This document shows positions 2,109 to 24,458 of a stretch of DNA of 64,000 nucleotides, one piece after another. The stretch spans positions 60,101 through 124,100 of the forward strand of contig JADJVF010000013.1 of the NCBI GenBank assembly GCA_016716705.1. Reading direction: 5' to 3'. Position 1 is the stretch's first letter. Every line of letters begins with the position of its first letter. The stretch comes from Holophagales bacterium. Lineage in GTDB: Bacteria > Acidobacteriota > Thermoanaerobaculia > UBA5066. The position numbers and the translations under genes are program-made. The notes beneath the pieces are model-generated. The model did not search any database, was not told the DNA's origin, and saw only the letters and a program-made list of their open reading frames with translations.

Positions 2109-3818
2109 TCAGAACGTCCGGCCCGCGGCCATCAACAGGTGCTCGACGACCGGACCGAGGGAGAGGACGGGAAAGAAGGTGAGAGCCCCGACGACGAGGA
2201 TCACGCCGGCGAGGAGGAGGGTGAAGAGAGGGCCGTCGACGGGAAAGGTCCCGGCCGACTCCGCCTGCCTCTTCTTCGCCGCGAGCGACCCGGCCATCCC
2301 GAGGATCGGGACGATCATCAGGAACCGCCCGAAGAACATCGAAAGGCCGAGGAGGACGTTGTAGAAGTTCGTGTTCGCGTTGAGCCCCGCGAAGGCGCTG
2401 CCGTTGTTCCCGGCCGCGCTCGTGAAGGCGTAGAGGGCTTCCGAGAGGCCGTGGGGGCCGGCGTTCGCGAGGCTCGAAAGGCCGTCCTTCGTCGTGACGG
2501 CGGCCGCCGTCCCGACGAGGATGCAGAACGTCAGGACGAGGACGGCGAGCATCGCGAGCTTCACCTCCGCCCCTTCGATCTTCTTGCCGAGGTACTCGGG
2601 CGTCCGGCCCACCATCAGGCCTGCGATGAAGACCGAGAGGACGACGAAGACGAAGACGCCGTAGAGGCCCGCGCCGACGCCGCCGAAGATCACCTCGCCG
2701 AGCTGGATGTTGACGAGGGGGACGAGGCCGCCGAGGGGCGTGAAGGAGTCGTGCATCCCGTTCACGGCGCCGCACGACGCGGCCGTCGTGACCGTGGCGA
2801 AGAGGGCGGTGTCGCCCGCGCCGAAGCGGACCTCCTTGCCCTCCATGTTCCCGGCCACGGCGTCGACCCCGGCGGCGTGATGGATCGGGTTGCCCCGCGT
2901 CTCGGCCCAGGCCGTGACGCCTGCGCCGGCGAGGAACAGAAGGCTCATGGCGCCGAAGACCGCCCAGCCGTGGCGGAGCTTGCCGGTCATCGAGCCGAGC
3001 GTGTACGTCAGCCCCGCCGGGATCGCGAAGATGAGGAGCATCTCGAGCAGGTTCGTGGCGGGGGTGGGGTTCTCGTACGGGTGGGCGGAGTTGGCGTTGA
3101 AGAAGCCGCCGCCGTTCGTGCCGAGCATCTTGATCGCCTCCTGCGAGGCGACCGGGCCGAGAGGAACCGTCTGCGTCGCGCCGTCGAGCGTCGTGATCTT
3201 CGCCGAGGCCGAGAAGCTCTGGACGACGCCCTGCGACATCAGGACGACCGCGGCGACGAGCGAGATGGGAAGGAGGACCCAGAGGGTCGAGCGGGTCAGG
3301 TCGACCCAGAAGTTGCCGAGGGTCTTCGACTCGGCGCGGGCGATCCCGCGGATCACCGCGACCGCGATGGCGATGCCGGTCGCGGCCGAGAGGAAGTTGT
3401 GGAGGGCGAGCGCCGCCATCTGGGTCAGGTGCGACATCGTCGCCTCGCCCACGTACGCCTGCCAGTTCGTGTTCGTGACGAAGGAGATCGCCGTGTTCCA
3501 GGCGAGGGCGGGCGGGACGGCGGGGAGGTGGTCGGGGTTCAGCGGCAGGAGACCCTGGAGGCGCTCGACGGCGTAGACGCCGAGGACGCCGAGGACGGAG
3601 AAGGCGATCAGGGAGGCGGCGTACGCCTTCCAGTCCTGCTCCTTCTTCGCGTCCACGCCGCCCAGCCGGTACACGAGACGCTCCAGGGGCCCGAGGACGG
3701 GGTCGAGAAACGTCTTTTCGCCAGAGAAGACCCGGCGCATGTAGAGGCCGAGGGGCTTCGTCACGGCGAGGACGAGAAGGAAGAAGACGGCGATCTTCAG
3801 GAACGCGAGGGCGGTCAC
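2109..3818 (-). CDS. kdpA: kdpA, potassium-transporting ATPase subunit A (K+ channel-like subunit)
   Basis: The 569-aa polytopic membrane protein has a typical KdpA N-terminus ([19 protein letters not shown]..) and [20 protein letters not shown] selectivity-filter-like segments. Its stop is 11 nt before the kdpB start. Confidence 0.9.
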
Positions 3819-3819
3819 T

Positions 3820-3909
3820 TCAGAGCCTCTCCGGTTTCAGGAGCGCATAGAGGAGATAGGCGAGCGCCAGTGCCGACACGACGAGACCGAGGGCGGACTC
3901 AGCGCTCAT
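3820..3909 (-). CDS. kdpF: kdpF, small hydrophobic KdpF subunit (29 aa)
   Basis: Manual translation gives MSAESALGLVVSALALAYLLYALLKPERL. Its stop overlaps the kdpA GTG start. The L-Y-A-L-(K/I)-P-E motif matches the KdpF consensus. Confidence 0.6.
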   Translation of the reverse strand: MSAESALGLVVSALALAYLLYALLKPERL

Positions 3910-4356
3910 CGAGGTCCTCTTGGAGAAGGGCAGCGCAGCCGCGGACATAGAGGAGCGCGAGCCCTCCGAGGAGGAGAGTCGCGAGGATGAACAGGGCGTC
4001 GGTCATCGGGCGTTCTCTTCGGGAACGGGCCCTTCGGGCGCGCTCAAAGCCGGTCGCCCGGCTTCGTCCCGGAAGTTTCGACGACGAAGAAGAGCGCTGA
4101 GACGGCGAGGAGGACGAGGAGGGTGGTCATGGGGGTCTCCTTCCGAGGGGAAGGTGCCCCCGCGCGCGTCAAGAAGTCCGGAAGGGGGGCGAAAGAAAGC
4201 CCAAAGAAGGGCCGGTGAGAGGCAGGGCGAGGCGCGTGGCCGGGAGGCGACGGCCGGGACCTAAAGAAAGGCTAAAGATCCGTCCGCCGGAAGCCCGCCG
4301 GAGGGCCTGAGACCTTCCGCGAGGCCGCACCCGGCCGGTAGAGTGGTCGGCCGGTC

Positions 4357-6345
4357 ATGTCAATCTTCCAGGCCGCGCGCCGACTCGTCATCGGGAAGAG
4401 CCGCGACCCGCTCGACCCCAGGGTCTTCCATCACCTCTCCCTCGCCGCTTTCCTCGCCTGGGTCGGCCTCGGAGCCGACGGCCTCTCCTCGTCCTGCTAT
4501 GGCCCGGAAGAGGCGTTCATCACCCTGGGGGAGCACAGCCACCTCGCGGTGTTCCTCGCGATCGCCATGATGGTGACGATCGCCGTCATCTCCGCCTCGT
4601 ACGCCCAGATCATTTCCCTGTTCCCCTCCGGCGGCGGCGGCTACCTCGTCGCGACGAGCCTCCTCGGCCGGGGAGCGGGGGTCGTCTCGGGCTCGGCACT
4701 CGTCGTCGACTACGCGATGACGATCGCGATGCAGGTGGCGGCCTCGGTCGCGGCGCTCTGCTCGCTCGCGCCGAGGGTCGTGCCGCAGAAGGAGCAGCTC
4801 GTCCTCGCGCTGATCCTCGTCACCTTCCTCATCATCCTGAACCTCCGAGGGGTGAAGGAGTCCGTCCTCGTCCTGGTGCCCATCTTTCTCCTCTTCCTGG
4901 TGACGCACGTCCTCCTCGTCGCCTTCGGAATCGGCAGCCACGCTTCGGCGATGCCCGAGGTCGTGGCGGCGACGGCCCGGGAGACCCGCGAGACGTGGAC
5001 GGCGCTCGGGGCTTTCGGAACGCTGGCCCTCCTCCTCCGAGCCTTCTCGATGGGCGGCGGAACCTACACGGGAATCGAGGCGATCTCGAACGGGCTCCAG
5101 ATCCTGAAGGAACCTCGCGTCCAGACGGGTCGCCGGACGATGCTCTACATGGCGGTCTCGCTCTCCCTCACGGCGGGAGGGCTGATCCTCTGCTACCTCC
5201 TGGCCGGAGTGCATCGCGTCCCGGGCCGGACGCTCAACGCGGTCCTGACGGAGAAGCTGGCGACCGAGGCTCTCGGGCCGGGCTCGCTGGCGGGCGGATT
5301 CCTCCTCCTGACGCTCGTCGCCGAGGGTGCGCTCCTCTTCGTCGGGGCCCAGGCCGGGTTCCTCGACGGGCCCCGGGTCCTTTCGAACATGGCGATCGAC
5401 TCGTGGGTCCCGCACCGGTTCAGCCTGCTCTCGGACCGGCTCGTGACGCAGAACGGGATCCTGGTCATGGGGGGGGCCGCGATCGGGATCCTGCTCTACA
5501 CGGGCGGGTCGATCGACGTGATCGTCGTCATGTACTCGATCAACGTCTTCCTCACCTTCAGCCTCTCGCAGCTCGGCATGTGCGTCCACTGGTGGAAGGT
5601 GAGGCGGGAGGACCCGAACTGGAAGCGTCACCTCGCGATCAACGGCCTCGGCCTCTCGCTCACGAGCACCCTCCTGGCGGCCACCGTGATGATGAAGTTC
5701 CGCGCGGGAGGGTGGGTGACGGTCCTGATCACGGGTTCCGTCGTGGGGCTCTGCGTCCTCGTGAGGAAGCACTACAGCTCGCTCCGGCTGCTGCTGAAGC
5801 GGACGGACGACGTCCTGACGACCCTCCGGCCGCCGAAGCCGCGCGACTCCGGTTCGTTCCCGAAGATCGAGCCGCCGAAACGCGGGACGCCGACGGCCGT
5901 CTTTCTCGTCTCCGGCTTCAACGGGCTCGGGATGCACTCCTTCCTGAACGTCCAGCGCTACTTCCCGGGCTACTTCAAGCACTGCATCTTCCTGTCGGTC
6001 GGCGTCGTCGATTCGTCCAGCTTCAAGGGCGCGCGCGAGCTCGAGAACCTCCGGAAGGAGACCGAGCGGGACCTCGTCCGCTACGTCGAGTTCGCGCGCG
6101 GCAACGGCCTGGCAGCGGAGCACCATCTCTCCGTCGGCACGGACCTCCTCGACGAGCTCGTCGACCTCTGCCGGCAGGTCCGGGGCGACTGGGACCGGCC
6201 GATCTTCTTCATGTCGAAGCTCGTCTTCCCCCAGGAGAACGCCCTGAACCGGCTCCTCCACAACCAGACGCCGTTCGCCCTCCAGCGACGCCTCCAGATG
6301 GAGGGGATGCACTCGGTGATCATGCCGATCCAGTCGGAGGTCTGA
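4357..6345 (+). CDS. APC-superfamily transporter with a ~200-aa C-terminal cytoplasmic domain; KimA-like putative K+ importer
   Basis: The 662-aa protein has ~12 TM helices in the first ~450 aa (GGGGYLVATSLLGRGAGVVSGSALVVDYAMT...) followed by a soluble tail. This is the architecture of KimA (YdaO)-type K+ transporters. It lies between kdpFABC and kdpDE. Confidence 0.6.
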   Translation: MSIFQAARRLVIGKSRDPLDPRVFHHLSLAAFLAWVGLGADGLSSSCYGPEEAFITLGEHSHLAVFLAIAMMVTIAVISASYAQIISLFPSGGGGYLVATSLLGRGAGVVSGSALVVDYAMTIAMQVAASVAALCSLAPRVVPQKEQLVLALILVTFLIILNLRGVKESVLVLVPIFLLFLVTHVLLVAFGIGSHASAMPEVVAATARETRETWTALGAFGTLALLLRAFSMGGGTYTGIEAISNGLQILKEPRVQTGRRTMLYMAVSLSLTAGGLILCYLLAGVHRVPGRTLNAVLTEKLATEALGPGSLAGGFLLLTLVAEGALLFVGAQAGFLDGPRVLSNMAIDSWVPHRFSLLSDRLVTQNGILVMGGAAIGILLYTGGSIDVIVVMYSINVFLTFSLSQLGMCVHWWKVRREDPNWKRHLAINGLGLSLTSTLLAATVMMKFRAGGWVTVLITGSVVGLCVLVRKHYSSLRLLLKRTDDVLTTLRPPKPRDSGSFPKIEPPKRGTPTAVFLVSGFNGLGMHSFLNVQRYFPGYFKHCIFLSVGVVDSSSFKGARELENLRKETERDLVRYVEFARGNGLAAEHHLSVGTDLLDELVDLCRQVRGDWDRPIFFMSKLVFPQENALNRLLHNQTPFALQRRLQMEGMHSVIMPIQSEV

Positions 6346-14236: not shown

Positions 14237-14917
14237 ATGAGCGCGATTCCTGCAACCGCGGAAAGACCGGCGTTCGGCTCCATCGCCCTCAAGGCGCTGA
14301 TGGCCCTGACCGGTCTCGTCCTCTTCGGCTTCGTCTTCATCCACATGGTCGGGAACCTCCAGCTCTACTCGGGACCGGAGAAGATCAACAAGTACGCGGC
14401 ATTCCTCAAGGGGACGCCGGCGGTCCTCTGGGGGTTCCGGTGCACGCTGCTCGCGGCGGTCGGCCTCCACGCCGTCGCCGCCTTCACGCTCTGGAGGCGG
14501 AACCTCGCCGCACGGCCGGTCGGCTACGCCAGCCAGGACTTCCAGGCCGCCTCGATCACCTCGCGGACGATGTACTGGACCGGTCCGATCCTCGGCCTCT
14601 TCATCGTCTACCACCTCCTGCACCTCACGGTGGGCTCGGTCCACCCGAGCTTCAGCCACACCGACGTCTACTCGAACGTCGTCACGGCCTTCTCGAACCC
14701 GGCCGTCTCGATCTTCTACATCCTCGCCATGGTCGCCCTCGGCTTCCACCTCTTCCACGGGGCCGTCAGCCTCTTCCAGACCCTGGGGCTGCGAACGCCG
14801 AAGTACGAGAAGCCGCTGAAGGCGGTCCTGATGGTCGTCTCCACCGTGATCGTCGTCGTGAACATCTCCTTCCCGATCGCGGTCCTGGCCGGGCTCGTCC
14901 GCCCGGTGGCGAGCTAG
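14237..14917 (+). CDS. sdhC: succinate dehydrogenase cytochrome b subunit (5-TM, B. subtilis SdhC type)
   Basis: A 226-aa membrane protein with conserved His residues in its TM helices. It starts 8 bp after mdh and lies directly upstream of sdhA. Confidence 0.8.
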
Positions 14918-14928
14918 GAGGTCGCGAA

Positions 14929-16844
14929 ATGGAACTCGACGGCAAGTGCCCCACCGGCCCCATGGAGTCGCGCTGGACGCGTCACAAGGCCGCCATCAAG
15001 CTCATCAACCCGGCGAACAAGCGGAAGTACAAGCTCATCATGGTCGGCTCCGGCCTCGCGGGCGCCTCGGGCGCGGCGAGCCTCGCCGAGCTCGGCTACG
15101 AGGTCTCCTGCTTCTGCTACCAGGACAGCCCCCGCCGCGCGCACTCCATCGCCGCGCAGGGCGGCATCAACGCGGCGAAGAACTACCAGAACGACGGCGA
15201 CAGCGTCTACCGCCTCTTCTACGACACGGTGAAGGGGGGCGACTTCCGCGCCCGCGAGTCGAACGTCCACCGCCTCGCCGAGGTGAGCAACGACATCATC
15301 AACCAGTGCGTCGCGCAGGGCGTCCCGTTCGGGCGCGAGTACGGCGGGACGCTCGGGAACCGCTCCTTCGGAGGCGCGCAGGTCTCGCGGACGTTCTACG
15401 CGCGGGGCCAGACGGGGCAGCAGCTCCTCATCGGCGCCTACCAGGCGCTCGAGAGGCAGATCGGCCTCGGCAAGGTGAAGATGTACCCGCGCACCGAGAT
15501 GCTCGACCTCATCGTGGTCGACGGCGTCGCGCGCGGCATCGTCGTCCGCGACATGGTCACCGGCAAGGTCTCGAGCCACCTCGCCGACGCGGTCATGCTC
15601 GCCACGGGCGGCTACGGGAACGGCTACTTCCTCTCGACGAACGCGAAGGGCTGCAACGCCACCGCCATCTGGCGCGCGCACCGGCGCGGCGCCTACTTCG
15701 CGAACCCCTGCTACACGCAGATCCACCCCACCTGCATCCCGGTCCACGGCGAGAACCAGAGCAAGCTGACGCTCATGTCCGAGTCGCTCCGCAACGACGG
15801 CCGGATCTGGGTGCCGCTGAAGAAGGGGGAGACCCGGAAGGCCGCCGACATCCCCGAGGCCGAGCGCGACTACTACCTCGAGCGCAAGTACCCCAGCTTC
15901 GGCAACCTCGCCCCCCGCGACATCTCCTCCCGCGCGGCCAAGCAGGTCTGCGACGAGGGGCGCGGCGTCGGGCCCGGGCGGCCAGGGCGTCTACCTCGAC
16001 TTCGCCGAGTCGATCGGACGGCTCGGAGAGGGCGTCATCCGCGAGCGGTACGGGAACCTCTTCGAGATGTACGAGAGGATCACCGACGAGAACCCGTACA
16101 AGGTCCCGATGCGGATCTACCCGGCCGTCCACTACACGATGGGCGGCCTCTGGGTCGACTACAACCTCATGTCGAACGTCCCGGGGCTCTTCGTCCTCGG
16201 CGAGGCGAACTTCTCCGACCACGGCGCGAACCGGCTCGGCGCCTCGGCCCTCATGCAGGGGCTCGCCGACGGCTACTTCGTCATCCCCTACACCATCGGC
16301 AACTACCTCGCGCAGGGAAAGCCCGCGAAGGTCGACGCCTCCCACCCGGCGGTGAAGGCGGCCGAGGCCGACGTCAACGAACGGACGAAGAAGCTCCTCT
16401 CCATCAAGGGGAAGCGGACCGTCGACTCGCTCCACAAGCAGCTCGGACTCCTCATGTGGGAGAACTGCGGCATGGGCCGGACCCGGGCGCGCCTCGAGCT
16501 GGGGATCGCGAAGATCCCGGAGGTTCGCGAGGAGTTCTGGAAGAACGTCTTCGTCCCCGGGAGCGGCGACGACCTGAACGTCGCGCTCGAGAAGGCGGGG
16601 CGGCTCGCCGACTTCTTCGAGCTCGACGAGCTGATCTGCCGCGACGCCCTCGCCCGCGAGGAGTCGTGCGGCGGCCACTTCCGCGAGGAGTACCAGACGC
16701 CGGACGGCGAGGCGCTGCGCAACGACGAGAAGTTCTGCCCACGTCGCGGCCTGGGAGTGGAAGGGGGAGGGGGCGACGCCCGAGCGCCACACGGAGGCGC
16801 TCACGTTCGAGTCCGTCCACCTCGCCACGAGGAGCTACAAGTAA
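14929..16844 (+). CDS. sdhA: succinate dehydrogenase flavoprotein subunit; interrupted by two 1-bp frameshifts at G/C homopolymers (near 15975 and near 16738)
   Basis: FAD-binding N-terminus ([20 protein letters not shown]) and [11 protein letters not shown]. With one base removed near 15975 the protein reads ...[20 protein letters not shown]... With one C removed near 16738 it reads the conserved C-terminus [13 protein letters not shown]...HLATRSYK*. Confidence 0.9.
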
Positions 16845-17638
16845 TGAGCGGCGACAAGGACATCAACATCAAGGTCCGCATCTGGCGGCAGAAGGGGCCT
16901 TCCGACAAGGGCGGCCTCGTCACCTACGACGTCCCGGGCGTCAGCACCGGCTCCTCCTTCCTCGAGATGCTCGACCTCGTCAGCGAGCGCCTCATGGAGA
17001 AGGGCGAGGAGCCGGTCGCCCTCGACCACGACTGCCGCGAGGGGATCTGCGGCGCCTGCTCGCTCGTCATCAACGGCGTCCCGCACGGGCCGCGCTCGGC
17101 GACGACGACCTGCCAGCTCCACATGAGGAGCTTTGCGGACGGCCAGACGATCACCGTCGAGCCGTTCCGGGCGAAGGCGTTCCCCGTCATCAAGGACCTC
17201 ATCGTCGACCGGTCGGCCTACGACCGGATCATCGCCGCGGGCGGCTTCGTCTCGGTGAACACCGGCGTCGGGGTCGACGCGAACGCGATCCCGGTCCGGA
17301 AGGAAGACGCCGAGCTCGCGATGGACGCGGCGGCGTGCATCGGCTGCGGCGCCTGCGCCGCGGCCTGCCCGAACGCCTCGGCCATGCTCTTCGTCGGGGC
17401 GAAGGTCTCGCACCTCGGCCTCCTGCCGCAGGGGCAGCCCGAGAGGCAGGACCGCGTCCTGAAGATGGTCGCGCAGATGGACGCCGAGGGCTTCGGCGCC
17501 TGCACGAACATGGGCGAGTGCGAGGCTGCCTGTCCCAAGGAGATCAAGCTCGAGGTCATCGCGAGGATGAACCGCGACTACCTCGGGGCCACGCTCACGA
17601 AGCGGCCCAAGGGGGCCGAGAAGGGCGGAGGGGCCTGA
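16844..17638 (+). CDS. sdhB: succinate dehydrogenase iron-sulfur subunit
   Basis: It has a 2Fe-2S cluster region ([10 protein letters not shown]), a 4Fe-4S cluster ([12 protein letters not shown]) and a 3Fe-4S cluster ([12 protein letters not shown]). It shares a TAATG stop/start overlap with sdhA. Confidence 0.9.
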
Positions 17639-17664
17639 GGCGCACGATCCAGACGAGAAAGACG

Positions 17665-17701
17665 GACGCGGCCGGGGGTGACCCCGGCCGCGTCTGTTTC
17701 C
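17665..17701 (+). terminator. rho-independent terminator after sdhB
   Basis: A perfect 13-bp inverted repeat GACGCGGCCGGGG-gtga-CCCCGGCCGCGTC followed by TGTTTCC. Confidence 0.6.
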
Positions 17702-17768
17702 GAGGCGGCTCCGGGTCCCGCCGGAGATTCGGATTGACCTCGCGAGGGGTGCGCCCTAGGCTCCGGAT

Positions 17769-18875
17769 TTGAGCTTGAGCGAAGACCGCAAGACCAAGTC
17801 CCCACCGGTTCCGGGAGTCGTCGTCGTCGGGGTCTGGCCGGAGACGACCGGCGAGCAGCTGGAGCACCTCCGGGCGGCCCTCGTCCTCGAGGGGTTCTCG
17901 GCCCACATCTCCCGGGGAGAGACCCGGACGATCCTCGTCTGCGTCGGCGACGCCTCGCCGATGAACATGGCCGCCCTGATGGTCCTTCCCGGGGTCGAGT
18001 CGGTGACGCCGGTGAGGAAGCCCTACAAGCTCGCCGCCCGGGAATCCTCGGTGGACCCCACGGTCGTGAGGGTCCCGTCGGCACGGGGCCCGGTCGACGT
18101 CGGAGGGAAGGAGCTCGTCGTCATCGCGGGCCCCTGCTCCGTCGAGGCGGAGCCGATGCTCCTCGAGACGGCGCACGCCGTTCGCTCGGCCGGGGCCAGG
18201 ATGCTCCGCGGCGGCGCGTTCAAGCCCCGCACCTCTCCCTACTCCTTCCAGGGGCTCGGTGGGGAGGCGCTCGAGATGCTGGCCCGCGTCCGGGAGGAAA
18301 CGGGCCTGCCCATCGTTTCCGAGGTGATGGACACGCGCGAGGTCGAGCGGATGGCCGAGATGGTCGACGTCCTGCAGGTCGGCGCGCGCAACATGCAGAA
18401 CTTCCCCCTCCTCACGGAGGTCGGGCGGACGCGGCGGCCGGTCCTCCTGAAGCGGGGGCTCTCGGCGCGCATCGAGGAGCTCCTGATGGCGGCGGAATAC
18501 GTGATGGCCCAGGGGAATCGAAACGTCATCCTCTGCGAACGCGGCATCCGGACCTTCGAGCCGGCGACGCGGAACACGCTCGACATCGCGGCGATCCCGG
18601 TCCTGAAGGCGGAGACGCACCTCCCGGTGATCGTCGACCCGAGCCACGCCGGGGGCCGTCCCGACCTGGTGGGCCCCCTTTCCTACGCCGCCGTCGCGGC
18701 CGGCGCGGACGGGCTGATCATCGAGGTCCACCCCTGCCCCGAGCAGGCGCTTTCCGACGGCGACCAGGCGCTCGAGCCGGTACAGTTCGCCGACCTGATG
18801 CAGCACCTCGGCGTCTTCGCGGTCGCCGCGGGACGAACCCTGGCGACGGCCGATCCGGCCCGGAGGGAGCCATGA
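17769..18875 (+). CDS. 3-deoxy-7-phosphoheptulonate (DAHP) synthase, type I-beta, with an N-terminal ferredoxin-like regulatory domain
   Basis: KDO8PS/DAHPS core ([34 protein letters not shown]) preceded by an ~85-aa N-terminal domain. It uses a TTG start. Confidence 0.85.
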
Positions 18876-19173
18876 GCCCCGAGCACGGCGGCGGCACCCG
18901 GAATCGCCGGAGCTGGCGCGCCTCAGAGAGCGGATCGAGCAGACCGACCGCGACATCGTCGATCTCGTGAAGCATCGCGTGGAGCTGGCGCTCGAGGCCG
19001 GCCGGCTCAAGCGGCTCATCGGAGCCCCGGTGTTCGACCCGGAACGCGAGCGCGAGGTGGAGCACCTCGTGCTCGACTACGCCACCCAGTCCGGCCTCGA
19101 CGAATCCCACATGCGGCTGGTCGTCCGCGGGCTCATCGCCCTCGCGCGCAGCAGCCAGGAGCGAGAGCCATGA
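18872..19173 (+). CDS. chorismate mutase (AroQ class); frame broken by an apparent 1-bp deletion near 18895
   Basis: The ATG at 18872 overlaps the DAHPS stop (ATGA). After a +1 shift in a C-run the frame reads PESPELARLRERIEQTDRDIVDLVKHRVELALEAGRLKRLIGAPVFDPEREREV..., a typical AroQ helix-1/helix-2 pattern. Confidence 0.65.
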
Positions 19174-19979
19174 GCAGCCCACGATCCGCGGCCGGCGGGG
19201 CGAACGCGCCCGCCCCGCTCCCCGACGAGATGCCGGTCCCGGTCACGCCCGGCGGCGTCCCGACCGACGACATCTTCGCCGCGAACCAGCGGCCCGCGGA
19301 CTTCACCTTCGACCGGCGGACCGTCGGCGTCTTCGACGACATGGTCAACCGCTCGGTCCCCTTCTACGGCGAGATCCAGAGGATGACGACCGAGCTGGCC
19401 GCCGACTTCGCGGTCCCGGGGAGCACGCTCTACGACTTCGGCTGCTCCACGGCGACGACGATGCTCGCCCTCGAGAACTCCGTCTCCCCGGACGTGCGCT
19501 TCGTCGGCTTCGACAACTCGGAGGAGATGCTCGGCCGGGCACGGCAGAAGCTCGCGGCCGCCCCGAGCCCCCGCCCGCGCGAGGTGCGTTTCCTCGACCT
19601 CCACGAACCGTTCGCGATCGAGGACGGGTCGGTCGCCGTGATGCTCTTCACGCTCCAGTTCGTCCGGCCGCTCCACCGGGAGAGGGTCATCCGCTCGATC
19701 GCCTCCGGCCTGCGCCACAACGGGGCGCTGATCCTGGTGGAGAAGGTCATCGAGAGCGACACGCTCTTCAACCGGCTCTTCATCGACCACTACTACGGCA
19801 TGAAGCGGCGGCACGGCTACTCGGAGATGGAGATCTCCCAGAAGCGGGAGGCTCTCGAGAACGTGCTGATCCCGTACCGGCTGGACGAGAACCGAGCCCT
19901 CCTTCTCGAGAACGGCTTCTCGCAGGTGCAGGAGTTCTTCCGCTGGTACAACTTCGCCGGCCTGGTGGCCGTCCGTTGA
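19170..19979 (+). CDS. cmoA: carboxy-S-adenosyl-L-methionine synthase CmoA homolog (prephenate-dependent)
   Basis: Strong motif conservation with E. coli CmoA: FTFDRRTVGVFDDMVNRSVPFYGEIQ, YDFGCSTATTML, LFTLQFVRPL, GYSEMEISQKREALENV, NFAGLVAVR. Its start overlaps the chorismate-mutase stop (ATGA). Confidence 0.75.
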   Translation: MSSPRSAAGGANAPAPLPDEMPVPVTPGGVPTDDIFAANQRPADFTFDRRTVGVFDDMVNRSVPFYGEIQRMTTELAADFAVPGSTLYDFGCSTATTMLALENSVSPDVRFVGFDNSEEMLGRARQKLAAAPSPRPREVRFLDLHEPFAIEDGSVAVMLFTLQFVRPLHRERVIRSIASGLRHNGALILVEKVIESDTLFNRLFIDHYYGMKRRHGYSEMEISQKREALENVLIPYRLDENRALLLENGFSQVQEFFRWYNFAGLVAVR

Positions 19980-20743
19980 CCGGCGCCGAAGCGGAAGCCG
20001 CGCGTCCCTCGGACAGCCTGCTCGTCCGCCTCGGGAACGTCGTGTTCCGCGTCCGCGACGGGCTCTTCCCGGCGGTGCTCGTCCTCCTCTTCGTCCTCAC
20101 GAAGCCCGAGTGGCCCGGCAACGACCAGCGGCTCGACGACATCCTCGACGTCGTCGGGGTGCTCGTGGCGATGCTGGGGCAGGCCCTTCGCGTCGCGGTG
20201 GTGGGGACGGTCTACGTCATCCGTGGCGGCCGGAACCGGAAGGTCTACGCGGAGGAGCTGGTGAGCGGGGGCTTCTTCGCCCACTGCCGCAATCCTCTCT
20301 ACGTCGGCAACCTGCTCGTCCTCCTCGGGCTCTTCGTCATCTGGAACGGCACGGTGGCCTATCTCGTGGGCGTGCCGTTCTTCCTCGTCGCCTACACCGC
20401 CATCGTCGCCGCCGAGGAGAACTTCCTGCGTGGAAAGTTCGGGGAGCCGTTCGACGAGTACTGCGCCCGGGTGCCGCGGTGGATCCCGAGGCTCCGCGGG
20501 CTCAGGGCCTCCCTCGCCGGGATGCGGTTCCACTGGCAGCGCGTCGTGATCAAGGAGTACGGAAGCACCGCGTCGTGGATGATCGCGGCGGCACTGCTGC
20601 TCCTCGCCGACTCGCTCGCCCACCAGACCTGGGACGCGCGACCCGTGTACCACGCCGCCTGCGTCGCGGTGCTTCCCGTCATCGCGGCCGCGTGGGGAAC
20701 GGCACGCTGGCTGAAGAAGACGAAGCGATTCCAGGACGACTGA
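19976..20743 (+). CDS. integral-membrane methyltransferase, ICMT/PEMT (isoprenylcysteine carboxyl methyltransferase) family
   Basis: The 255-aa polytopic protein has the family motif HCRNPLYVGNLLVLLG and EENFLRGKFGEPFDEY. A TTG start overlaps the cmoA stop by 4 bp. Confidence 0.65.
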   Translation: MTGAEAEAARPSDSLLVRLGNVVFRVRDGLFPAVLVLLFVLTKPEWPGNDQRLDDILDVVGVLVAMLGQALRVAVVGTVYVIRGGRNRKVYAEELVSGGFFAHCRNPLYVGNLLVLLGLFVIWNGTVAYLVGVPFFLVAYTAIVAAEENFLRGKFGEPFDEYCARVPRWIPRLRGLRASLAGMRFHWQRVVIKEYGSTASWMIAAALLLLADSLAHQTWDARPVYHAACVAVLPVIAAAWGTARWLKKTKRFQDD

Positions 20744-20801
20744 CGGATGCGGGGGAGCGCGCCCGCGGGATCCCGAGGCCGCTCCGCCAGGTGCGAAACT
20801 C

Positions 20802-21578
20802 GTGGGGATGGCCGACGCTCCTGACCCGAACGACCCCTACTCCCGCCTCTCCTACCGTCGCCTGATCGCCTGGCCGGCGCGGATCCAGCGCGAGGCTCCG
20901 TTCCTGCGGAGAGGTCCTCCGGCGAAGCGCCTTCGAAGCGCCTCCTCGACCTCGGCTGCGGGACGGGCGAGCACGCGCGCTTCCTGCAGGAGGACGGCTT
21001 CGACGTGACGGGCGTCGACGCGTCCGAGGCCCAGCTCGCCCAGGCGCGCGAGGCGGGGCCGGGGCCGGAGTTCGTCAAGAGGCGATCTCGCCGCGCTCGG
21101 AGAGGCCGTGAGCGGGCGATTCGGCGGCGCGATCGCACTGGGGAACGGCCTGCCGCACCTCTTCGCGGAGGGGATGGCCCGCTTCCTCTCGGGGCTGGCC
21201 GGCCTCCTGCTTCCCGGCTCCCCGGTCCTCTTCCAGCTCCTGAACTACGACCGGATCCTGGACCAGCGCGTGACGAGCCTCCCGCTCAACGTCCGCGAGG
21301 ACGACGCCGAACGCGTGGTTTTTCTCCGCCTCATGGACCCGCGCCCCGACGGCACCGTCCTCTTCAACCCGACGACACTTCGCTGGCGCCCCGGCGAGGA
21401 GCCGCCGGTGGAGGTCGTCACCGGAAAGAACGTCGTCCTGAAGGCGTGGCGGCGAGCCGAGCTCGAGGCGGCCCTTGCCGTCGCCGGTTTCCGCGTCGAA
21501 GCGGTCTTCGGCGGGATGAAGCGCGAAGGCTGGGACGTCGCAGCTTCATCCGACACGGTCGTCCTGGCCCGGAGGTGA
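20802..21578 (+). CDS. class I SAM-dependent methyltransferase; interrupted by two apparent frameshifts (near 20900 and near 21078)
   Basis: Three frame pieces join into ...PYSRLSYRRLIAWPARIQREAPFL / LLDLGCGTGEHARFLQEDGFDVTGVDASEAQLAQAREAGPGPEFVK / GDLAALGEAVSGRFGGAIALGNGLPHL.... The middle piece contains MTase motif I (DLGCGTG). Confidence 0.5.
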
Positions 21579-21596
21579 AGATGCCGAAGTCCGTCG

Positions 21597-21740
21597 ACCC
21601 CCCCCCCCGCCGGCATCCGCCCCCTCCCCCCCCTCCCGGGCCAGGACCCCCGCCGCGGGGGGGGGGCGCCGCGGGGCCGGCCCGTCCAAAGGGGCCGCCC
21701 CCCCGGGCGCGGCCGGGGGGGGGGGGGCGCCCCCCCTCGC
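21597..21740. repeat. poly-C / poly-G low-complexity tract (probable sequencing or assembly artefact)
   Basis: Runs of 8-14 C or G (cccccccccgcc...gggggggggggggcgcccccc) sit directly between the methyltransferase stop and the kinase start. Confidence 0.7.
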
Positions 21741-21764
21741 GGCGGGCCCGGCTCGGCGCCGGCC

Positions 21765-24458
21765 ATGATTCGGGGAAAGGAGAGATCCGGGACGGTGGAA
21801 GACGAACGACCCGATCCGGGCGACGCCGCGAACGCGGCCGGCGAGATCACCGTGCCGTCGGTGCGCCTCTTCGCCCCCGGCACCGAGATCGGCCGGCGCT
21901 ACGAGGTGCGCGGGGTTCTCGGCATGGGCGGCTCGGCCGTCGTCTACGAGGCGTTCGACCGGGAGCTGAAGCGGCGGGTCGCGCTGAAGGTCCTCCGGAC
22001 CGACCGGACGTCGGAGGCCTCCCTGAAGCGGTTCCGGCGCGAGGTGGCCATCGCGCGCGACGCGGCGGGGAGCCGTCTCGTCCGGGTCTTCGACATCGGT
22101 CAGGCGGGCGACACCGTCTTCCTGACGATGGAGCTCGTGGAGGGGGAGTCGCTTCGGGAGCTGCTCGCACGCGGCCCGCTTCCGCCGGAACGTGCCGTCG
22201 AGATCGGCTCCGAGGTGCTTCGCGCCCTCGCCGACCTGCACGCCCTCGGCATCGTCCACCGCGACGTGAAGCCGGGGAACATCCTCCTGGCGGCGACGGG
22301 CGAGGTGAAGCTCGCCGACTTCGGCCTCGCGCGGCACTGGGAAGGGACGGAGACGCGCGTCACGGAGACCGAGGGGCTCGTCGGCACGGTGGAGTACCTC
22401 TCTCCCGAGCAGGCGCTCGGCGACCTCCTCGACGCGCGGAGCGACCTCTACTCGTTCGGCGTCGTCCTCTTCGAGATGCTCGCGGGGAAGGTGCCGCTGC
22501 GCGGCGACTCGGCCATCGGGACGATCGTGGCGCACATCCGCCAGGAGCCGCCCGACGTGAGGAAGCTCCGGCCGCAGGCGCCCTCCTGGCTCGCGGGGGT
22601 CGTGACACGCCTCCTCGCCAAGGACCGCGAGAGGCGCTACGCGACGGCCGCCGACGTCCTTTCCGATCTCGAATCCCGGAAGGCGCGAAGGGCGCCCGGC
22701 GCCTTCGCCGGCCCCTTGCGATCGGCATCCCGGCCGCGTTTCTCGCGATCCTCCTCGTCCTGGCGCTCGTACCGGTCTTTCCGGTGGAACCGGCCGCGCC
22801 TTCTCGCGCCTCGTGCCGGACGGCGGGGGAGTCCAGGCGCTCGACGGGGGCCGGCTCCTCTGGCGGCGTGCGGGCGCCGAAGCGGGGCGTCAGGTCACGA
22901 TCGTCCGGCTCGGGGGAGGGCGCACCGCGGCCGTTGCCGTGTGGGGCGGTCTCACCGACACGAGGAAAGCGCTCGAGGTCCTGGATCCGTTCACCGGTCG
23001 GACCGTTTCCGAGATGCCGCTTCCCCAGCCGATCTTCGCGTTCCCCGGATTTGCGGATACGTACGTCGTCGGAGCCCTGTTCGCCTTCGACGTCGAAGGG
23101 GACGGCGTCGACGAGGTCGCGGTGAGGCTCCAGCACGTCCCTCTTCCCTTCGGCGACCTACGTCTGCGACCTCGCGCGCCGGCGGGTCCTCGCAGCCTTC
23201 TACGGCTCGGGGCATCACTACGCGGCGGCCGCGGCGGACGTCGACGGGGACGGCCGAAAGGAGCTCGTTCTCACCGGCTACAACAACCGGATGGGGTACT
23301 CCGGCGCGGTGGCAGCGTTCCGCGTGCCGAAGGAAGGGGAGGTCGGGGGCGGCGGCACCGAGCTCCCGTCCGCAGAATCGCCGGACCGCCCGACCTGGGA
23401 GGGCTGGTCCCCGCTTCTCGCCTGGTACGCGCTCGTGCCGCTCGCCGCCGTCGGCGGGAGATCGTCGATCACCGTCGACACTTCCGGGGCCGTCGTCGGC
23501 GTCGGGCCCTTCGGGCCGCGCCGGGTCGAACTCGCCGCTCGACGGCTTCCCGCGAGCCTCGCGCGAGAACGGGGAGGTGCAGCGGCGCGCCCTTGCGCGC
23601 GAGGAGGCGTACGTTCACCTCCGGGAGACGGCGCGGCTGGGCGAGACGGGCGACCCGGCGGCGGAGCTCGTAGAGGCGGAGCTGGCGCTGGAGAGATCCC
23701 GTGCCGCGGGCGACGTTCCGCTCACGCAGTGGGCGTCCCGCGTCCGGGCGAAGGCGCTCCTCGACGCCGGGCGCCCGGCCGACGCGGACTCCGCCTGGGT
23801 CTCCTCCTTCGAGCGCTCGGAGGAGCCTGCGCCCGTCGCCCTCGAGGCGGGCCGGGCGTTCCACCTCAAGGGAGAGCTGGCCCGGGCGGTCTCCTGGTAC
23901 CGGCGGGGCCTCGGTGGGCGAGGCAGCCACGCCCGGGGCGGTCATCACCCGAGGGACCTCGCCGGCGGCGAAATCCTCGCCCTCGGCGAGATGGGCCGGT
24001 GGGAAAACGCGGCGGTCGAGATCGACCGGTTCGAGACGGCCTTCCCGGAGCTGGCGTCGGACGTCGCAAACTTCCGTGCCTACGTCGCCTGGCGGACGCT
24101 TCGCCGGCCGCAACGCCTCGAGGATCGCGACGACGACCCCGGGCTCTACCGCTACTGGAGGCTCGAGTCGCGCCGCGTCCTCGGCGATGCGCCGGCGACG
24201 CTCCTCGGCGAGGTCGACCGGCTCGGCAGGGAGGCGCCGGACGTGGCTCCGCTCCTCGCGTCGCTGCGGGCAGAGCTCCTCTTCGACACCGGTCGCGTGG
24301 CCGAAGGGAAGGTGCTCGCCGCCGAGGCCGTGGCCGACGCCACGCGCGAGGCGACGGCCGACGTGGGAATCCGGGCACACCTGCCGCTCGTCGTCGAGAG
24401 AGCCCGGCGTCGCGGGGCGCTCGCGGTCAGGTCCGCTGCAGCAGCAGGACGACGGTGA
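21765..24458 (+). CDS. Ser/Thr protein kinase with a TM segment, an extracytoplasmic FG-GAP/beta-propeller-like domain and a C-terminal TPR-like helical domain; the frame is broken at least three times
   Basis: Hanks kinase motifs are present: VALKVL, HRDVKPGNILL, DFGLAR, GTVEYLSPE. After a frameshift near 22712 a TM helix follows (LAIGIPAAFLAILLVLALV). Segments in other frames carry DVDGDGRKELVLTGYNNRMGYSG and FDVEGDGVDEVAV, which are FG-GAP-like. The C-terminal helical-repeat region returns to the original frame and ends at 24458. Confidence 0.7.
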   Translation: MIRGKERSGTVEDERPDPGDAANAAGEITVPSVRLFAPGTEIGRRYEVRGVLGMGGSAVVYEAFDRELKRRVALKVLRTDRTSEASLKRFRREVAIARDAAGSRLVRVFDIGQAGDTVFLTMELVEGESLRELLARGPLPPERAVEIGSEVLRALADLHALGIVHRDVKPGNILLAATGEVKLADFGLARHWEGTETRVTETEGLVGTVEYLSPEQALGDLLDARSDLYSFGVVLFEMLAGKVPLRGDSAIGTIVAHIRQEPPDVRKLRPQAPSWLAGVVTRLLAKDRERRYATAADVLSDLESRKARRAPGAFAGPLRSASRPRFSRSSSSWRSYRSFRWNRPRLLAPRAGRRGSPGARRGPAPLAACGRRSGASGHDRPARGRAHRGRCRVGRSHRHEESARGPGSVHRSDRFRDAASPADLRVPRICGYVRRRSPVRLRRRRGRRRRGRGEAPARPSSLRRPTSATSRAGGSSQPSTARGITTRRPRRTSTGTAERSSFSPATTTGWGTPARWQRSACRRKGRSGAAAPSSRPQNRRTARPGRAGPRFSPGTRSCRSPPSAGDRRSPSTLPGPSSASGPSGRAGSNSPLDGFPRASRENGEVQRRALAREEAYVHLRETARLGETGDPAAELVEAELALERSRAAGDVPLTQWASRVRAKALLDAGRPADADSAWVSSFERSEEPAPVALEAGRAFHLKGELARAVSWYRRGLGGRGSHARGGHHPRDLAGGEILALGEMGRWENAAVEIDRFETAFPELASDVANFRAYVAWRTLRRPQRLEDRDDDPGLYRYWRLESRRVLGDAPATLLGEVDRLGREAPDVAPLLASLRAELLFDTGRVAEGKVLAAEAVADATREATADVGIRAHLPLVVERARRRGALAVRSAAAAGRR

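Follow-up and report, generated by a model that had tools for sequence, protein, structure and literature searches.

Organization of the locus

The window, that is, the whole 64-kb stretch of DNA analysed here, contains five consecutive genes on the plus strand. The first (17769-18875) encodes a DAHP synthase of type I-beta that begins with a ferredoxin-like (FXD) regulatory domain at its N-terminus (PF00793, 279.5 bits; PF18152, 45.8 bits); the protein scores 470 bits against NCBIfam NF006421 with a cut-off of 335. It is followed by genes for an AroQ-type chorismate mutase, CM (18872-19173; PF01817, 58.1 bits), a CmoA-type carboxy-S-adenosyl-L-methionine (Cx-SAM) synthase (19170-19979), a 255-residue integral membrane protein of the PEMT/ICMT family (19976-20743, TTG start) and a class I SAM-dependent methyltransferase (Methyltransf_25, approximately 20808-21578).

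The original prediction described all five genes as linked by overlapping stop and start codons. Three overlaps of 4 bp are indeed present: ATGA at 18872-18875 between DAHP synthase and CM, ATGA at 19170-19173 between CM and cmoA, and TTGA at 19976-19979 between cmoA and the membrane gene. However, they join four genes only, and the fifth follows after a gap of 64 bp. Overlaps of this length are commonplace in high-GC operons, and they are evidence for operon organization and for nothing beyond it. A GC-rich hairpin with a 13-bp stem, in which 12 of the 13 pairs are G-C, is located at 17665-17694 after the sdhB stop codon (no strand assigned). It probably terminates the sdh operon, which would place the start of the DAHP synthase operon downstream of the hairpin. 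A consensus scan found no sigma-70-like promoter.

The predicted coordinates of the five genes hold, but the reading frames of CM and the class I methyltransferase are not intact in the window. One base is missing from CM between 18895 and 18896, leaving 18898-19173 in frame, and the methyltransferase carries extra bases at 20910, 20920 and 21080. Both genes are intact in the related loci L006, L007 and L008. The 100-residue CM orthologue of L008 reads GHPESPELARLRE across the break, and the methyltransferase is intact in L006 (257 residues) and L008 (255 residues) and matches as a single tblastn segment in L007. The upstream sdhA, an essential gene, is also frame-broken in the window (near 15975 and 16740) and intact in L007, while the near-identical contig L002 has frame breaks at other places than the window. 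For these reasons the breaks look like single-base assembly indels, and a reading of the two genes as pseudogenes was rejected.

Conserved pairing of cmoA with the membrane gene

A relative of the membrane protein was found in at least 535 species-level genomes. Synteny was counted in the best 80 of these loci, of which 79 could be evaluated; 76 of them have cmoA as the gene directly upstream, in the same orientation. The paired loci span about ten bacterial phyla, with representatives in Acidobacteriota, Gemmatimonadota, Eisenbacteria, Verrucomicrobiota, Planctomycetota, Bacteroidota, Alpha-, Beta- and Gammaproteobacteria, Nitrospirota, Hydrogenedentota and Armatimonadota; the pair is also found on one contig binned as Methanoperedens. 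Cultured carriers include Ensifer, Rhizobium and Gemmatirosa; one such carrier is Ensifer adhaerens, and WP_057207202.1 is a pair-type CmoA from Ensifer. The spacing between the cmoA stop codon and the beginning of the membrane-protein match ranges from -28 to +200 bp, and an exact 4-bp overlap was called in 38 loci by a heuristic choice of start codon. The reverse comparison used 74 metagenome loci with close cmoA relatives and at least 150 bp of downstream sequence. The membrane gene is directly downstream in at least 63 of them and within 500 bp in a further two. Exceptions are three membrane-gene relatives without an adjacent cmoA (L024, L030 and L052) and four cmoA genes of the paired type without the membrane gene (L104, L120, L132 and L140). 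The synteny that the original prediction proposed to look for in relatives is thus conserved in both directions.

The conserved core of the locus is a cassette of two genes, the CmoA-type synthase and the 255-residue membrane enzyme, and in the window the two are translationally coupled. We found no published description of such a cassette. The flanks of the paired loci contain no further conserved neighbour that would hint at an acceptor. The class I methyltransferase is confined to four loci of Holophagales/Thermoanaerobaculia, L002 and L006-L008, and is a lineage-specific accessory outside the core. It resembles E. coli CmoM and CmoB in motif I alone.

The absence of cmoB behind cmoA was borne out: tblastn with E. 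coli CmoB (E<1e-3) gave no match anywhere in the 64-kb window. Nor was a CmoB homologue found in about 160 flanks of genome and metagenome loci or on the 18 pair-bearing replicons of a plasmid collection. CmoB is present in some Acidobacteria and Verrucomicrobia (PMC4482062), and cmoB could lie elsewhere in genomes that carry the pair.

The CmoA-type synthase

The CmoA of the window scores 225.9 bits against TIGR00740 (cut-off 193.3). It is approximately 38% identical to E. coli CmoA and matches the solved CmoA structures 1IM8 (E 9e-48) and 4GEK (E 6e-46). An identical protein is encoded on the short-read contig L001. The residues that contact Cx-SAM in E. coli CmoA were taken from the literature (PMC3663124) and compared in 70 pair-linked CmoAs. 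Tyr39, Asp62, Gly64, Asp89, Phe137, Glu164 and Arg199 are conserved in the window copy and in all 70, and Asp117 in 68 of the 70. Arg199, which pairs with the carboxylate, is conserved in the CmoA family but not in other SAM-dependent enzymes (PMC3663124). The main site residues, whose loss would have spoken against the original prediction, are thus retained, and the CmoA chemistry looks preserved in this clade; the window protein would be expected to make Cx-SAM. However, Asn132, a contact of the methionine moiety in E. coli CmoA, is variable (Leu, Val, Thr, Asn and others), and the clade has its own substitutions relative to E. coli: His181-His182 to Tyr-Tyr, Glu139 to Arg, Gly174-Glu175 to Asn-Arg and Thr208-Asp209 to Pro-Tyr. 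These differences could mean that the donor or the product is not the same.

The proteobacterial CmoAs of the paired type share 55-62% identity with the window protein but only 35-41% with E. coli CmoA. Of 48 CmoA records in the plasmid collection, the 40 that were listed fall into two separated identity groups. Among the records listed, the group at 57-69% identity comes from the very 18 replicons on which the membrane gene also lies, 10-200 bp from cmoA, while in the group at 35-42% all 17 listed enteric, Aeromonas and Proteus records adjoin cmoB. Judged by sequence, the pair-type CmoA is a distinct orthogroup.

The membrane enzyme

The partner of CmoA has an ICMT/PEMT fold (PF04191, 35.3 bits; cut-off 25). 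Its best match among characterized families is LmtA (TIGR04571, residues 18-214, E 1.5e-24), the lipid A 1-phosphate O-methyltransferase of Leptospira interrogans. The two are alike in overall size and fold class, and LmtA acts on a lipid substrate; however, the window enzyme reaches 87 bits where the cut-off is 325, and is not an orthologue. Against the Pfam ICMT model it remains below the threshold (18 bits versus 24). The RxPxY...EE cofactor motif is retained. The family differs from ICMT/Ste14 and Ma-ICMT, the protein-S-isoprenylcysteine O-methyltransferases (PDB codes 4A2N and 5VG9), in two places: RNPxY replaces the RHPxY of ICMT in 124 of 126 family representatives, and the stretch ahead of the motif, unlike that of ICMT, is an invariant R-G-G loop. 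From its conservation, Arg83 may be considered a candidate carboxylate contact. To our knowledge, bacteria generally lack CaaX prenylation.

Proposed supply of prephenate

DAHP synthase carries out the first step of the shikimate pathway, and chorismate mutase makes prephenate. At least 20 genome loci have both activities immediately ahead of cmoA, in two architectures; DAHP synthase was counted directly before cmoA in 20 of the 80. Twelve loci (Holophagales, Thermoanaerobaculia and Gemmatimonadota) have a separate DAHP synthase gene followed by CM. In the other eight the DAHP synthase core alone was detected, and Pfam confirmed a fused N-terminal CM in both of the two that were tested (Eisenbacteria L033 and the unclassified bacterium L058). 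In addition, among the representatives of 50%-identity clusters, five (P0185, P0192, P0209, P0222 and P0226) are membrane enzymes with a C-terminal CM_2 domain, and all four of these that were looked up are followed by a pair-type cmoA as the next gene. CM has been recruited in three ways: it is encoded by a gene of its own, joined to DAHP synthase or joined to the membrane enzyme. This points to prephenate, the known co-substrate of CmoA. The proposed prephenate supply line gains support both from the two independent upstream architectures and from the natural fusions. For the cassette, the DAHP synthase is an upstream addition specific to certain lineages.

DAHP synthase and CM might instead be ordinary genes of aromatic amino-acid synthesis, whose position before cmoA has no dedicated supply function. 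This would concern the supply only and is compatible with the function proposed below for the pair. The DAHP synthase carries the FXD domain, which we regard as typical of feedback-regulated housekeeping enzymes, and the linkage is restricted to a few lineages (20 of 80 genome loci versus one of 48 metagenome loci). Furthermore, spontaneous rearrangement of chorismate already suffices for CmoA in vitro (PMC7496830). On the other hand, both architectures directly precede cmoA, in loci of Acidobacteriota, Gemmatimonadota and Eisenbacteria, another subfamily has CM fused directly to the membrane enzyme, and no further aromatic-pathway gene was found within 10 kb on the near-identical contig L002. 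We regard the ordinary role as unlikely, though it deserves attention.

Proposed function

The cassette CmoA may turn SAM and prephenate into Cx-SAM, a rare cofactor. The membrane enzyme, holding the place of CmoB in the tRNA pathway, would take Cx-SAM instead of SAM and move the carboxymethyl group (-CH2-COO-) to a membrane-associated or hydrophobic acceptor. In the Holophagales-like acidobacterium, DAHP synthase of the same operon would raise the shikimate flux and CM would convert chorismate to prephenate, the carboxyl donor. The lineage-specific class I methyltransferase gene follows the cassette; it is a speculation that it methyl-esterifies the new carboxyl group, as CmoM does. We consider this scheme as a whole the best explanation and a probable one. 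It builds on observed gene identities, overlaps, fold, residue conservation, synteny and domain fusions, from which we infer the chemistry and the acceptor. The original suggestion that Cx-SAM is used by an ICMT/PEMT-like membrane enzyme and not by CmoB is supported by the conserved synteny and the retained Cx-SAM residues, and a Cx-SAM-dependent carboxymethyltransferase acting on a membrane-associated acceptor is the most likely identity of this protein.

It is also conceivable that the two proteins cooperate, but that the CmoA-like enzyme makes a different SAM derivative, uses another carboxyl donor or plainly methylates the substrate of the membrane enzyme. The variable Asn132, the substitutions near the active-site helices (positions 139, 181-182 and 208-209) and the identity of only 35-41% to characterized CmoAs would fit this. 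However, Arg199 and the contacts Tyr39, Asp62, Asp89, Phe137 and Glu164 are invariant and the threefold recruitment of CM points to prephenate, and we find this reading improbable.

Another possibility is that Cx-SAM is made, but that the membrane enzyme works as an ordinary SAM-dependent O-methyltransferase in the manner of ICMT or LmtA, acting for example on a carboxyl or phosphate of a product carboxymethylated by an unlinked enzyme. The characterized members of the fold, ICMT/Ste14 and reportedly LmtA, use SAM, the cofactor motif is kept, and in E. coli a separate enzyme, CmoM, methyl-esterifies the cmo5U carboxyl. Yet the minimal conserved unit comprises two genes, or two genes of which one is fused to CM, and it includes no conserved third transferase. 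A synthase without a transferase in its cassette would be odd, since every known Cx-SAM system pairs both, and the family-wide His-to-Asn change in the motif and the invariant R-G-G loop separate the membrane enzyme from ICMT. We find this assignment quite improbable.

That CmoA feeds a CmoB encoded elsewhere for tRNA cmo5U34, beside an unrelated SAM-dependent membrane methyltransferase, agrees with its score above the NCBIfam equivalog cut-off, the RefSeq label 'tRNA modification' of the Ensifer copy and the occurrence of CmoB in some Acidobacteria and Verrucomicrobia, but is highly improbable given the adjacency across about ten phyla, often with stop/start overlap, the pair-type orthogroup that never adjoins cmoB while the enteric, Aeromonas and Proteus plasmid copies all do, and the five CM fusions, senseless for an unrelated neighbour.

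Comparison with known systems

The preferred scheme, with the membrane enzyme as consumer of Cx-SAM, can be compared with E. coli CmoA/CmoB. Both have equivalog-level CmoA homology, conserved Cx-SAM contacts and an overlapping two-cistron operon of synthase and transferase (in E. coli, L005, cmoA at 2703-3446 overlaps cmoB at 3443-4414), and the window pair, too, would depend on prephenate. However, the partner in the window is a polytopic membrane protein, while CmoB is a soluble Rossmann-fold enzyme; the CmoA belongs to a separate orthogroup, and no CmoB homologue is nearby. A tRNA would be an implausible substrate for an intramembrane active site.

Precedents exist in pairs of Cx-SAM synthase and transferase for acceptors other than tRNA, namely TglE/TglF (3-thiaglutamate), MccS with MccB's C-terminal domain (microcin C-like) and phage CmoA/CmoX (DNA 5-carboxymethylcytosine), and their transferases are described as methyltransferase homologues: CmoB-like, of methyltransferase fold and a DNA C5-methyltransferase (PMC10491745, PMC12783734). 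Here, too, a dedicated CmoA homologue adjoins a predicted carboxymethyltransferase that is not CmoB. As far as is known, the transferases of these three systems are soluble class I enzymes working on peptide or nucleic acid, whereas the predicted one of the window is an integral membrane enzyme, and its cassette has no peptide, nucleotide or phage context and is widely spread among bacterial phyla.

The bifunctional AroQ-DAHP synthase of type I-beta (NF009239, Bacillus) shows the same fusion as that upstream of cmoA in Eisenbacteria-type loci (Pfam CM_2 and DAHP_synth_1). The window has both activities as separate genes, with an FXD domain on the DAHP synthase and CM downstream, and placement before cmoA is not a described feature of such enzymes.

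A lipid head group, for example a lipid phosphate or amine, is our tentative first choice of acceptor, because the nearest characterized relative, LmtA, methylates lipid A 1-phosphate. More doubtful is a nucleophile that is small and hydrophobic, for instance a thiol, a sulfide or an amine, and other acceptors take up the remaining probability. Since cmoA and the membrane enzyme recur in about ten bacterial phyla, a carboxymethylated membrane-associated molecule, so far undescribed, probably exists.

Gene organization of the cassette

The plus-strand interval 17769-21578 of the window, which has an overall G+C content of about 71%, contains the five consecutive genes of the original prediction, and family models agree with the identities given to them. 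The first (17769-18875) codes for a type I-beta DAHP synthase with an N-terminal FXD domain (PF18152, 45.8 bits) and a catalytic DAHP_synth_1 domain (PF00793, 279.5 bits); it exceeds the cut-offs of both NF006421 (470.1 bits versus 335) and TIGR01361 (385.6 versus 267.75). The second, running from the ATG at 18872 to 19173, codes for an AroQ chorismate mutase (CM). Its frame-corrected sequence matches positions 1-80 of the 80-position profile PF01817 (CM_2) with 58.1 bits against a cut-off of 27, and falls narrowly below the NCBIfam equivalog-domain model TIGR01791 (60.1 versus 66.95). The third gene (19170-19979) codes for CmoA, with 225.9 bits against an equivalog cut-off of 193.3 for TIGR00740; the score for the narrower enterobacterial model NF011995 is below its cut-off (161.9 versus 285). 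The fourth (19976-20743) codes for a PEMT/ICMT-family membrane protein of 255 residues (PF04191, 35.3 bits versus 25), called here the membrane enzyme, and the fifth (approximately 20808-21578) for a class I methyltransferase (Methyltransf_25). All five genes had been described as chained by overlapping stop and start codons. The overlaps are present as ATGA at 18872, ATGA at 19170 and TTGA at 19976, but they link only four genes, and the fifth follows after 64 bp.

Two of the five frames are broken in the window. One base is missing from the CM gene between 18895 and 18896, and extra bases are found in the class I methyltransferase gene at 20910, 20920 and 21080. Both genes are intact in three related loci, L006, L007 and L008. 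Frame shifts near 15975 and 16740 also interrupt the window copy of the essential gene sdhA, just upstream, whose orthologue in L007 is continuous. In addition, contig L002, which is 94-97% identical to the window, is frame-broken at other sites. For these reasons the breaks are read as probable assembly indels, and a pseudogene reading was rejected on the same comparisons. Single-base indels occur across the coding regions, including sdhA/sdhB (14900-17640), a pattern that suggests an unpolished long-read assembly, so that ORF-based readings of the window need care. The window CmoA protein is identical to the product of an independent short-read contig. Among named relatives a Holophagales MAG (UBA5066) is the nearest, with a membrane protein that is 89% and a CmoA that is 94% identical, and the DNA is therefore assigned to a Holophagales-like acidobacterium.

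A perfect 13-bp GC-rich hairpin is located directly 3' of sdhB (17665-17694), with a T tract that is weak on the plus strand and a T-rich tail that is better on the minus strand, so that it may terminate transcription in both directions or serve as the terminator of the sdh operon. A consensus scan gave no sigma-70-like promoter, and no tRNAs were found in the window. A riboswitch or other RNA element was discarded, since Rfam gave no match in 17000-22500 at E ≤ 1 and, across the window as a whole, none that reached a gathering score. Downstream of the methyltransferase stop (21578) and ahead of the ATG of a Ser/Thr kinase gene (21765), the segment 21590-21740 contains C runs and G runs, each 8-11 long, and would give a Pro/Gly/Arg-rich peptide if translated. 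This may reflect low-complexity sequence prone to errors, or a genuine spacer.

The class I methyltransferase is confined, by tblastn of the genome loci, to Holophagales and Thermoanaerobaculia. When its orthologue from L008 was compared by BLASTP with E. coli CmoM, motif I alone was aligned (25 bits, 53 residues), and the outcome with E. coli CmoB was the same; assignment of the fifth gene to either family was dismissed on this limited likeness. It is followed by a chromate transporter gene (PF02417) in L007 (11591-12763) and L008 (2731-3876), and by the Ser/Thr kinase gene in the window. The restriction of the class I methyltransferase to one lineage indicates that the conserved unit consists of cmoA and the membrane gene.

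Synteny of cmoA and the membrane gene

A scan of one genome per species with an alignment of 34 homologues of the membrane protein (A1) found that at least 535 genomes encode a relative. Synteny was examined by tblastn in the best 80 of these loci, which come from Acidobacteriota, Gemmatimonadota, Eisenbacteria, Verrucomicrobiota, Planctomycetota, Bacteroidota, Alpha-, Beta- and Gammaproteobacteria, Nitrospirota, Hydrogenedentota, Armatimonadota and one Methanoperedens-binned contig. A CmoA homologue is encoded immediately upstream on the same strand in 76 of them; one more ends at a contig boundary, and adjacent cmoA is absent from the remaining three (L024, L030 and L052). Measured from the cmoA stop, the membrane-protein match begins at -28 to +200 bp, and an exact 4-bp overlap was counted in 38 loci by a heuristic start call. 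The reverse test used an alignment of pair-linked CmoAs (A2) against metagenome contigs, and 74 loci had at least 150 bp of downstream sequence. The membrane gene lies immediately 3' of cmoA in 63 of these and within 500 bp in 2 more, and it is missing from four loci with more than 1 kb downstream. The co-occurrence of cmoA with an ICMT-like gene, named as a check in the original prediction, thus holds in relatives in both directions.

In two metagenome loci with a GC fraction of about 0.5 (L120, 4771-5550; L132, 2427-3206), pair-type cmoA is followed by an ORF for a 260-residue soluble class I methyltransferase-like protein, which could be another Cx-SAM-using transferase. An apparent fusion of CmoA with the membrane enzyme in genome locus L028 was rejected as a frameshift artefact of a long-read assembly. 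The cassette is also found on a Methanoperedens MAG contig (L065, an archaeon) and in a MAG labelled Bifidobacterium (L073, an actinobacterium), by either horizontal transfer or mis-binning.

Links to prephenate

It had been suggested that DAHP synthase and CM act as a prephenate supply line for CmoA. This idea is supported both by gene order and by gene fusion. A DAHP synthase gene is located immediately 5' of cmoA in 20 of the best 80 genome loci, in two architectures. Twelve loci, from Holophagales, Thermoanaerobaculia and Gemmatimonadota, share the arrangement of the window, in which a separate CM gene comes next. In the remaining 8 (four Eisenbacteria, three unclassified and one Gemmatimonadota) the DAHP synthase core alone was detected; an N-terminal CM domain fused to it was confirmed with Pfam in the two loci tested, L033 and L058, and in a third, L038, a CM match lies just upstream of the core. 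The neighbourhood is lineage-restricted, being present in only 1 of 48 evaluable metagenome loci.

To look for fusions, 1.84 billion representative proteins were searched exhaustively with a profile, and the membrane-enzyme family has 294 representatives among them at E ≤ 1e-30. In five of the top 150 (P0185, P0192, P0209, P0222 and P0226) the membrane domain is extended at its C terminus by a CM_2 domain (56-66 bits). Four of these CM-fusion loci were looked up, and in each a pair-type cmoA comes next, with a product 47-53% identical to the window CmoA. Because the membrane enzyme is fused to CM and cmoA is next door, this is strong Rosetta-stone evidence that the activities of the membrane enzyme, CM and CmoA would belong to one pathway.

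The DAHP synthase and CM of the window could still be purely housekeeping enzymes of aromatic biosynthesis. This is a real, if less probable, possibility; it is a separate question, and the core claim about CmoA and its partner is unaffected by the answer.

In nine loci a gene for pyruvate phosphate dikinase, a source of PEP, precedes the membrane gene by approximately 3.5 kb; in L030 (385-3048), where cmoA is missing, the two genes abut. This linkage may be lineage synteny or part of the precursor supply.

The pair-type CmoA

Proteobacterial pair-linked CmoAs have 55-62% identity to the window protein and 35-41% to E. coli CmoA. The same separation is seen in the plasmid collection, where the identities in the 40 records listed of 48 fall into two separated groups. 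On 18 replicons of Gemmatirosa, Ensifer, Rhizobium and Sinorhizobium, CmoA is 57-69% identical to the window protein and the membrane gene is 10-200 bp away, while in 17 of 17 plasmid records from enteric bacteria, Aeromonas and Proteus it is 35-42% identical and cmoB adjoins it.

The residues of E. coli CmoA in contact with Cx-SAM were tabulated by Byrne et al. (PMC3663124). Of these, Arg199 forms a salt bridge to the Cx-SAM carboxylate and is kept in the CmoA family and not in other SAM-dependent enzymes (PMC3663124). The corresponding residue is R226 in the window protein, and it is Arg in 70 of 70 pair-linked CmoAs. Tyr39, Asp62, Gly64, Asp89, Phe137 and Glu164 (E. coli numbering) are likewise invariant in all 70, and Asp117 is found in 68. 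Three other contact positions vary: position 66 is Ser or Ala, position 90 is Asn, Ser, Asp or Tyr, and position 132, Asn in E. coli, is Leu in the window protein and Leu, Val, Thr or Asn, among others, across the clade. There are also clade-specific changes, for example His181-His182 to Tyr-Tyr. By these comparisons the pair-type CmoA forms a distinct orthogroup and looks CmoA-like in its catalysis.

The variability at Asn132 would fit a CmoA-like enzyme with a different product. Given the invariant Arg199, this is considered unlikely. For the window CmoA, conversion of SAM and prephenate to Cx-SAM and phenylpyruvate is predicted; the occurrence of CM as a neighbour or fusion partner is an indirect pointer to this reaction.

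The membrane enzyme

The membrane enzyme passes the PEMT model PF04191 and does not reach the ICMT model PF04140 (18 bits versus 24). Its AlphaFold2 model is confident (pLDDT 87.5, pTM 0.85). The polytopic helical fold is superimposable on the solved ICMT structures, and the C-terminal cofactor region aligns with that of ICMT. The best-scoring characterised family is Leptospira LmtA, the lipid A Kdo2 1-phosphate O-methyltransferase (TIGR04571). The two are related; however, with 87.1 bits against a cut-off of 325 the membrane enzyme falls outside the LmtA family.

A signature derived from 126 representatives consists of R27, R72, R83-G84-G85, G99, R105-N106-P107-x-Y109, N112, E147-E148, F155, Y162 and R168 (numbering of the window protein). 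The consensus cofactor motif of the ICMT superfamily is RHPxY ... EE, as in Ste14. The window protein carries R105-N106-P107-L108-Y109 and E147-E148, and the Arg, Pro, Tyr and Glu-Glu of this motif are invariant in the family. The His of the ICMT motif is replaced by Asn in 124 of the 126 representatives. The invariant RGG is located just ahead of the cofactor motif, in the sole low-confidence internal loop of the model (residues 82-91), where ICMT has unrelated sequence. These family-specific residues, RGG and Asn, may accommodate the extra carboxylate of Cx-SAM, and the membrane enzyme is predicted to take Cx-SAM in place of SAM. The retained cofactor motif would also suit an enzyme that still uses SAM; set beside the Asn and RGG replacements, that reading is judged improbable.

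Two members of the family have unusual architectures. P0242 (442 residues) has an extra transmembrane segment and an OmpA-like domain, and in P0131 (507 residues) the membrane domain is tandemly duplicated.

Search for cmoB and neighbouring genes

The original prediction also noted that no CmoB homologue follows cmoA. With E. coli CmoB as query, none was found within the 64-kb window, in the 80 genome loci (flanks of up to 10 kb) or in the 80 metagenome loci, and cmoB is likewise absent from the 18 pair-bearing replicons of the plasmid collection (rhizobial replicons and the 1.1-Mb Gemmatirosa plasmid). A tRNA role for CmoA, with the membrane enzyme as a mere neighbour, is very unlikely, being hard to reconcile with the synteny statistics, the separate CmoA orthogroup and the CM fusions. 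In Ensifer canadensis the RefSeq labels of the pair are 'CmoA ... tRNA modification' and 'isoprenylcysteine carboxylmethyltransferase family protein'. From this one annotated example, the label 'tRNA modification' on pair-type cmoA is probably a mis-annotation for the clade.

All-against-all clustering of the ORFs within approximately 6 kb in 82 loci gave no third conserved gene that would name the acceptor. Apart from cmoA, the membrane gene and DAHP synthase/CM, the clusters recovered reflect lineage-specific synteny, for example of PPDK and PurF. On Ensifer canadensis plasmid pT173d (L167, NZ_CP083374.1, 331996-336458) the pair is followed by genes for a response regulator, a histidine kinase and a PAP2-family phosphatase, and in locus L174 (2588-3833) a PMT/ArnT-family glycosyltransferase gene follows cmoA. 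The phosphatase with its two-component system, the glycosyltransferase and the OmpA fusion hint at the cell envelope, inconsistently across loci. On the 1.1-Mb Gemmatirosa kalamazoonensis plasmid (L003, CP007129.1, 2288-9087) the pair directly follows a nitrous-oxide reductase cluster, in which Pfam identifies a nos propeller (nosZ type), NosD, an ABC transporter (ATPase and permease) and a copper-binding protein; neither DAHP synthase nor CM was found near this pair.

Proposed function and significance

The following mechanism is proposed. CM would make prephenate, and in the lineage of the window the co-transcribed DAHP synthase would also drive carbon into the shikimate pathway. CmoA would then consume prephenate to carboxylate the SAM methyl group. 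Translational coupling would set a fixed ratio of the membrane enzyme to CmoA, and the membrane enzyme would take Cx-SAM at the cytoplasmic face and pass the carboxymethyl group on to an acceptor located in the membrane or at its surface. Two properties described in PMC4482062 would explain why the transferase has its own CmoA close by: Cx-SAM is in short supply compared with SAM, and CmoA binds its product tightly.

The use of Cx-SAM by an ICMT-like enzyme, raised as a possibility in the original prediction, is supported by three independent lines of comparative evidence: conserved adjacency, recurrent recruitment of CM and DAHP synthase, and fusion to CM. These allow us to propose, with somewhat better than even confidence, that the partner is the first integral-membrane carboxymethyltransferase, using Cx-SAM produced locally by its own CmoA, which a recruited or fused CM would feed, to place -CH2-COO- onto a membrane lipid or small hydrophobic nucleophile. 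A narrower version, in which a sulfide, amine or arsine is carboxymethylated to thetin- or betaine-type compounds, is at best very improbable. As a reading of the locus, the earlier observation was largely right.

As far as is known, the transferases of the described Cx-SAM systems are soluble class I enzymes. Synthase-transferase pairs have been described for four systems: CmoA/CmoB for tRNA, TglE/TglF for a peptide thiol, MccS/MccB for a peptidyl-cytidylate (PMC10491745, PMC12783734) and, in Nat Commun 2025, CmoA/CmoX for phage DNA (PMC12783734). All four transferases are methyltransferase homologues, of CmoB-like, methyltransferase-fold or DNA C5-methyltransferase type (PMC10491745, PMC12783734). 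They act on tRNA, peptide and DNA, whereas the partner described here has the ICMT/PEMT membrane fold. No prior description of such a Cx-SAM partner was found in the literature searched, whose coverage is incomplete and leaves novelty unproven.

Cx-SAM is a rare natural derivative of SAM, and the membrane enzyme, if the proposal is correct, would be its fifth user, with a wholly different fold. Carboxymethylation is already being engineered by other groups (PMC7496830), and a natural Cx-SAM-selective scaffold with its CM/CmoA/transferase cascade would then be of use in biocatalysis. The hypothesis is testable in cultured, tractable carriers, namely Ensifer adhaerens, E. canadensis, Rhizobium grahamii and Gemmatirosa kalamazoonensis. 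If true, Cx-SAM chemistry would extend from nucleic acids and peptides to membrane or small-molecule biology, and soil and water bacteria of approximately ten phyla would contain carboxymethylated envelope lipids or betaine-like metabolites, a widespread class that has so far escaped notice.
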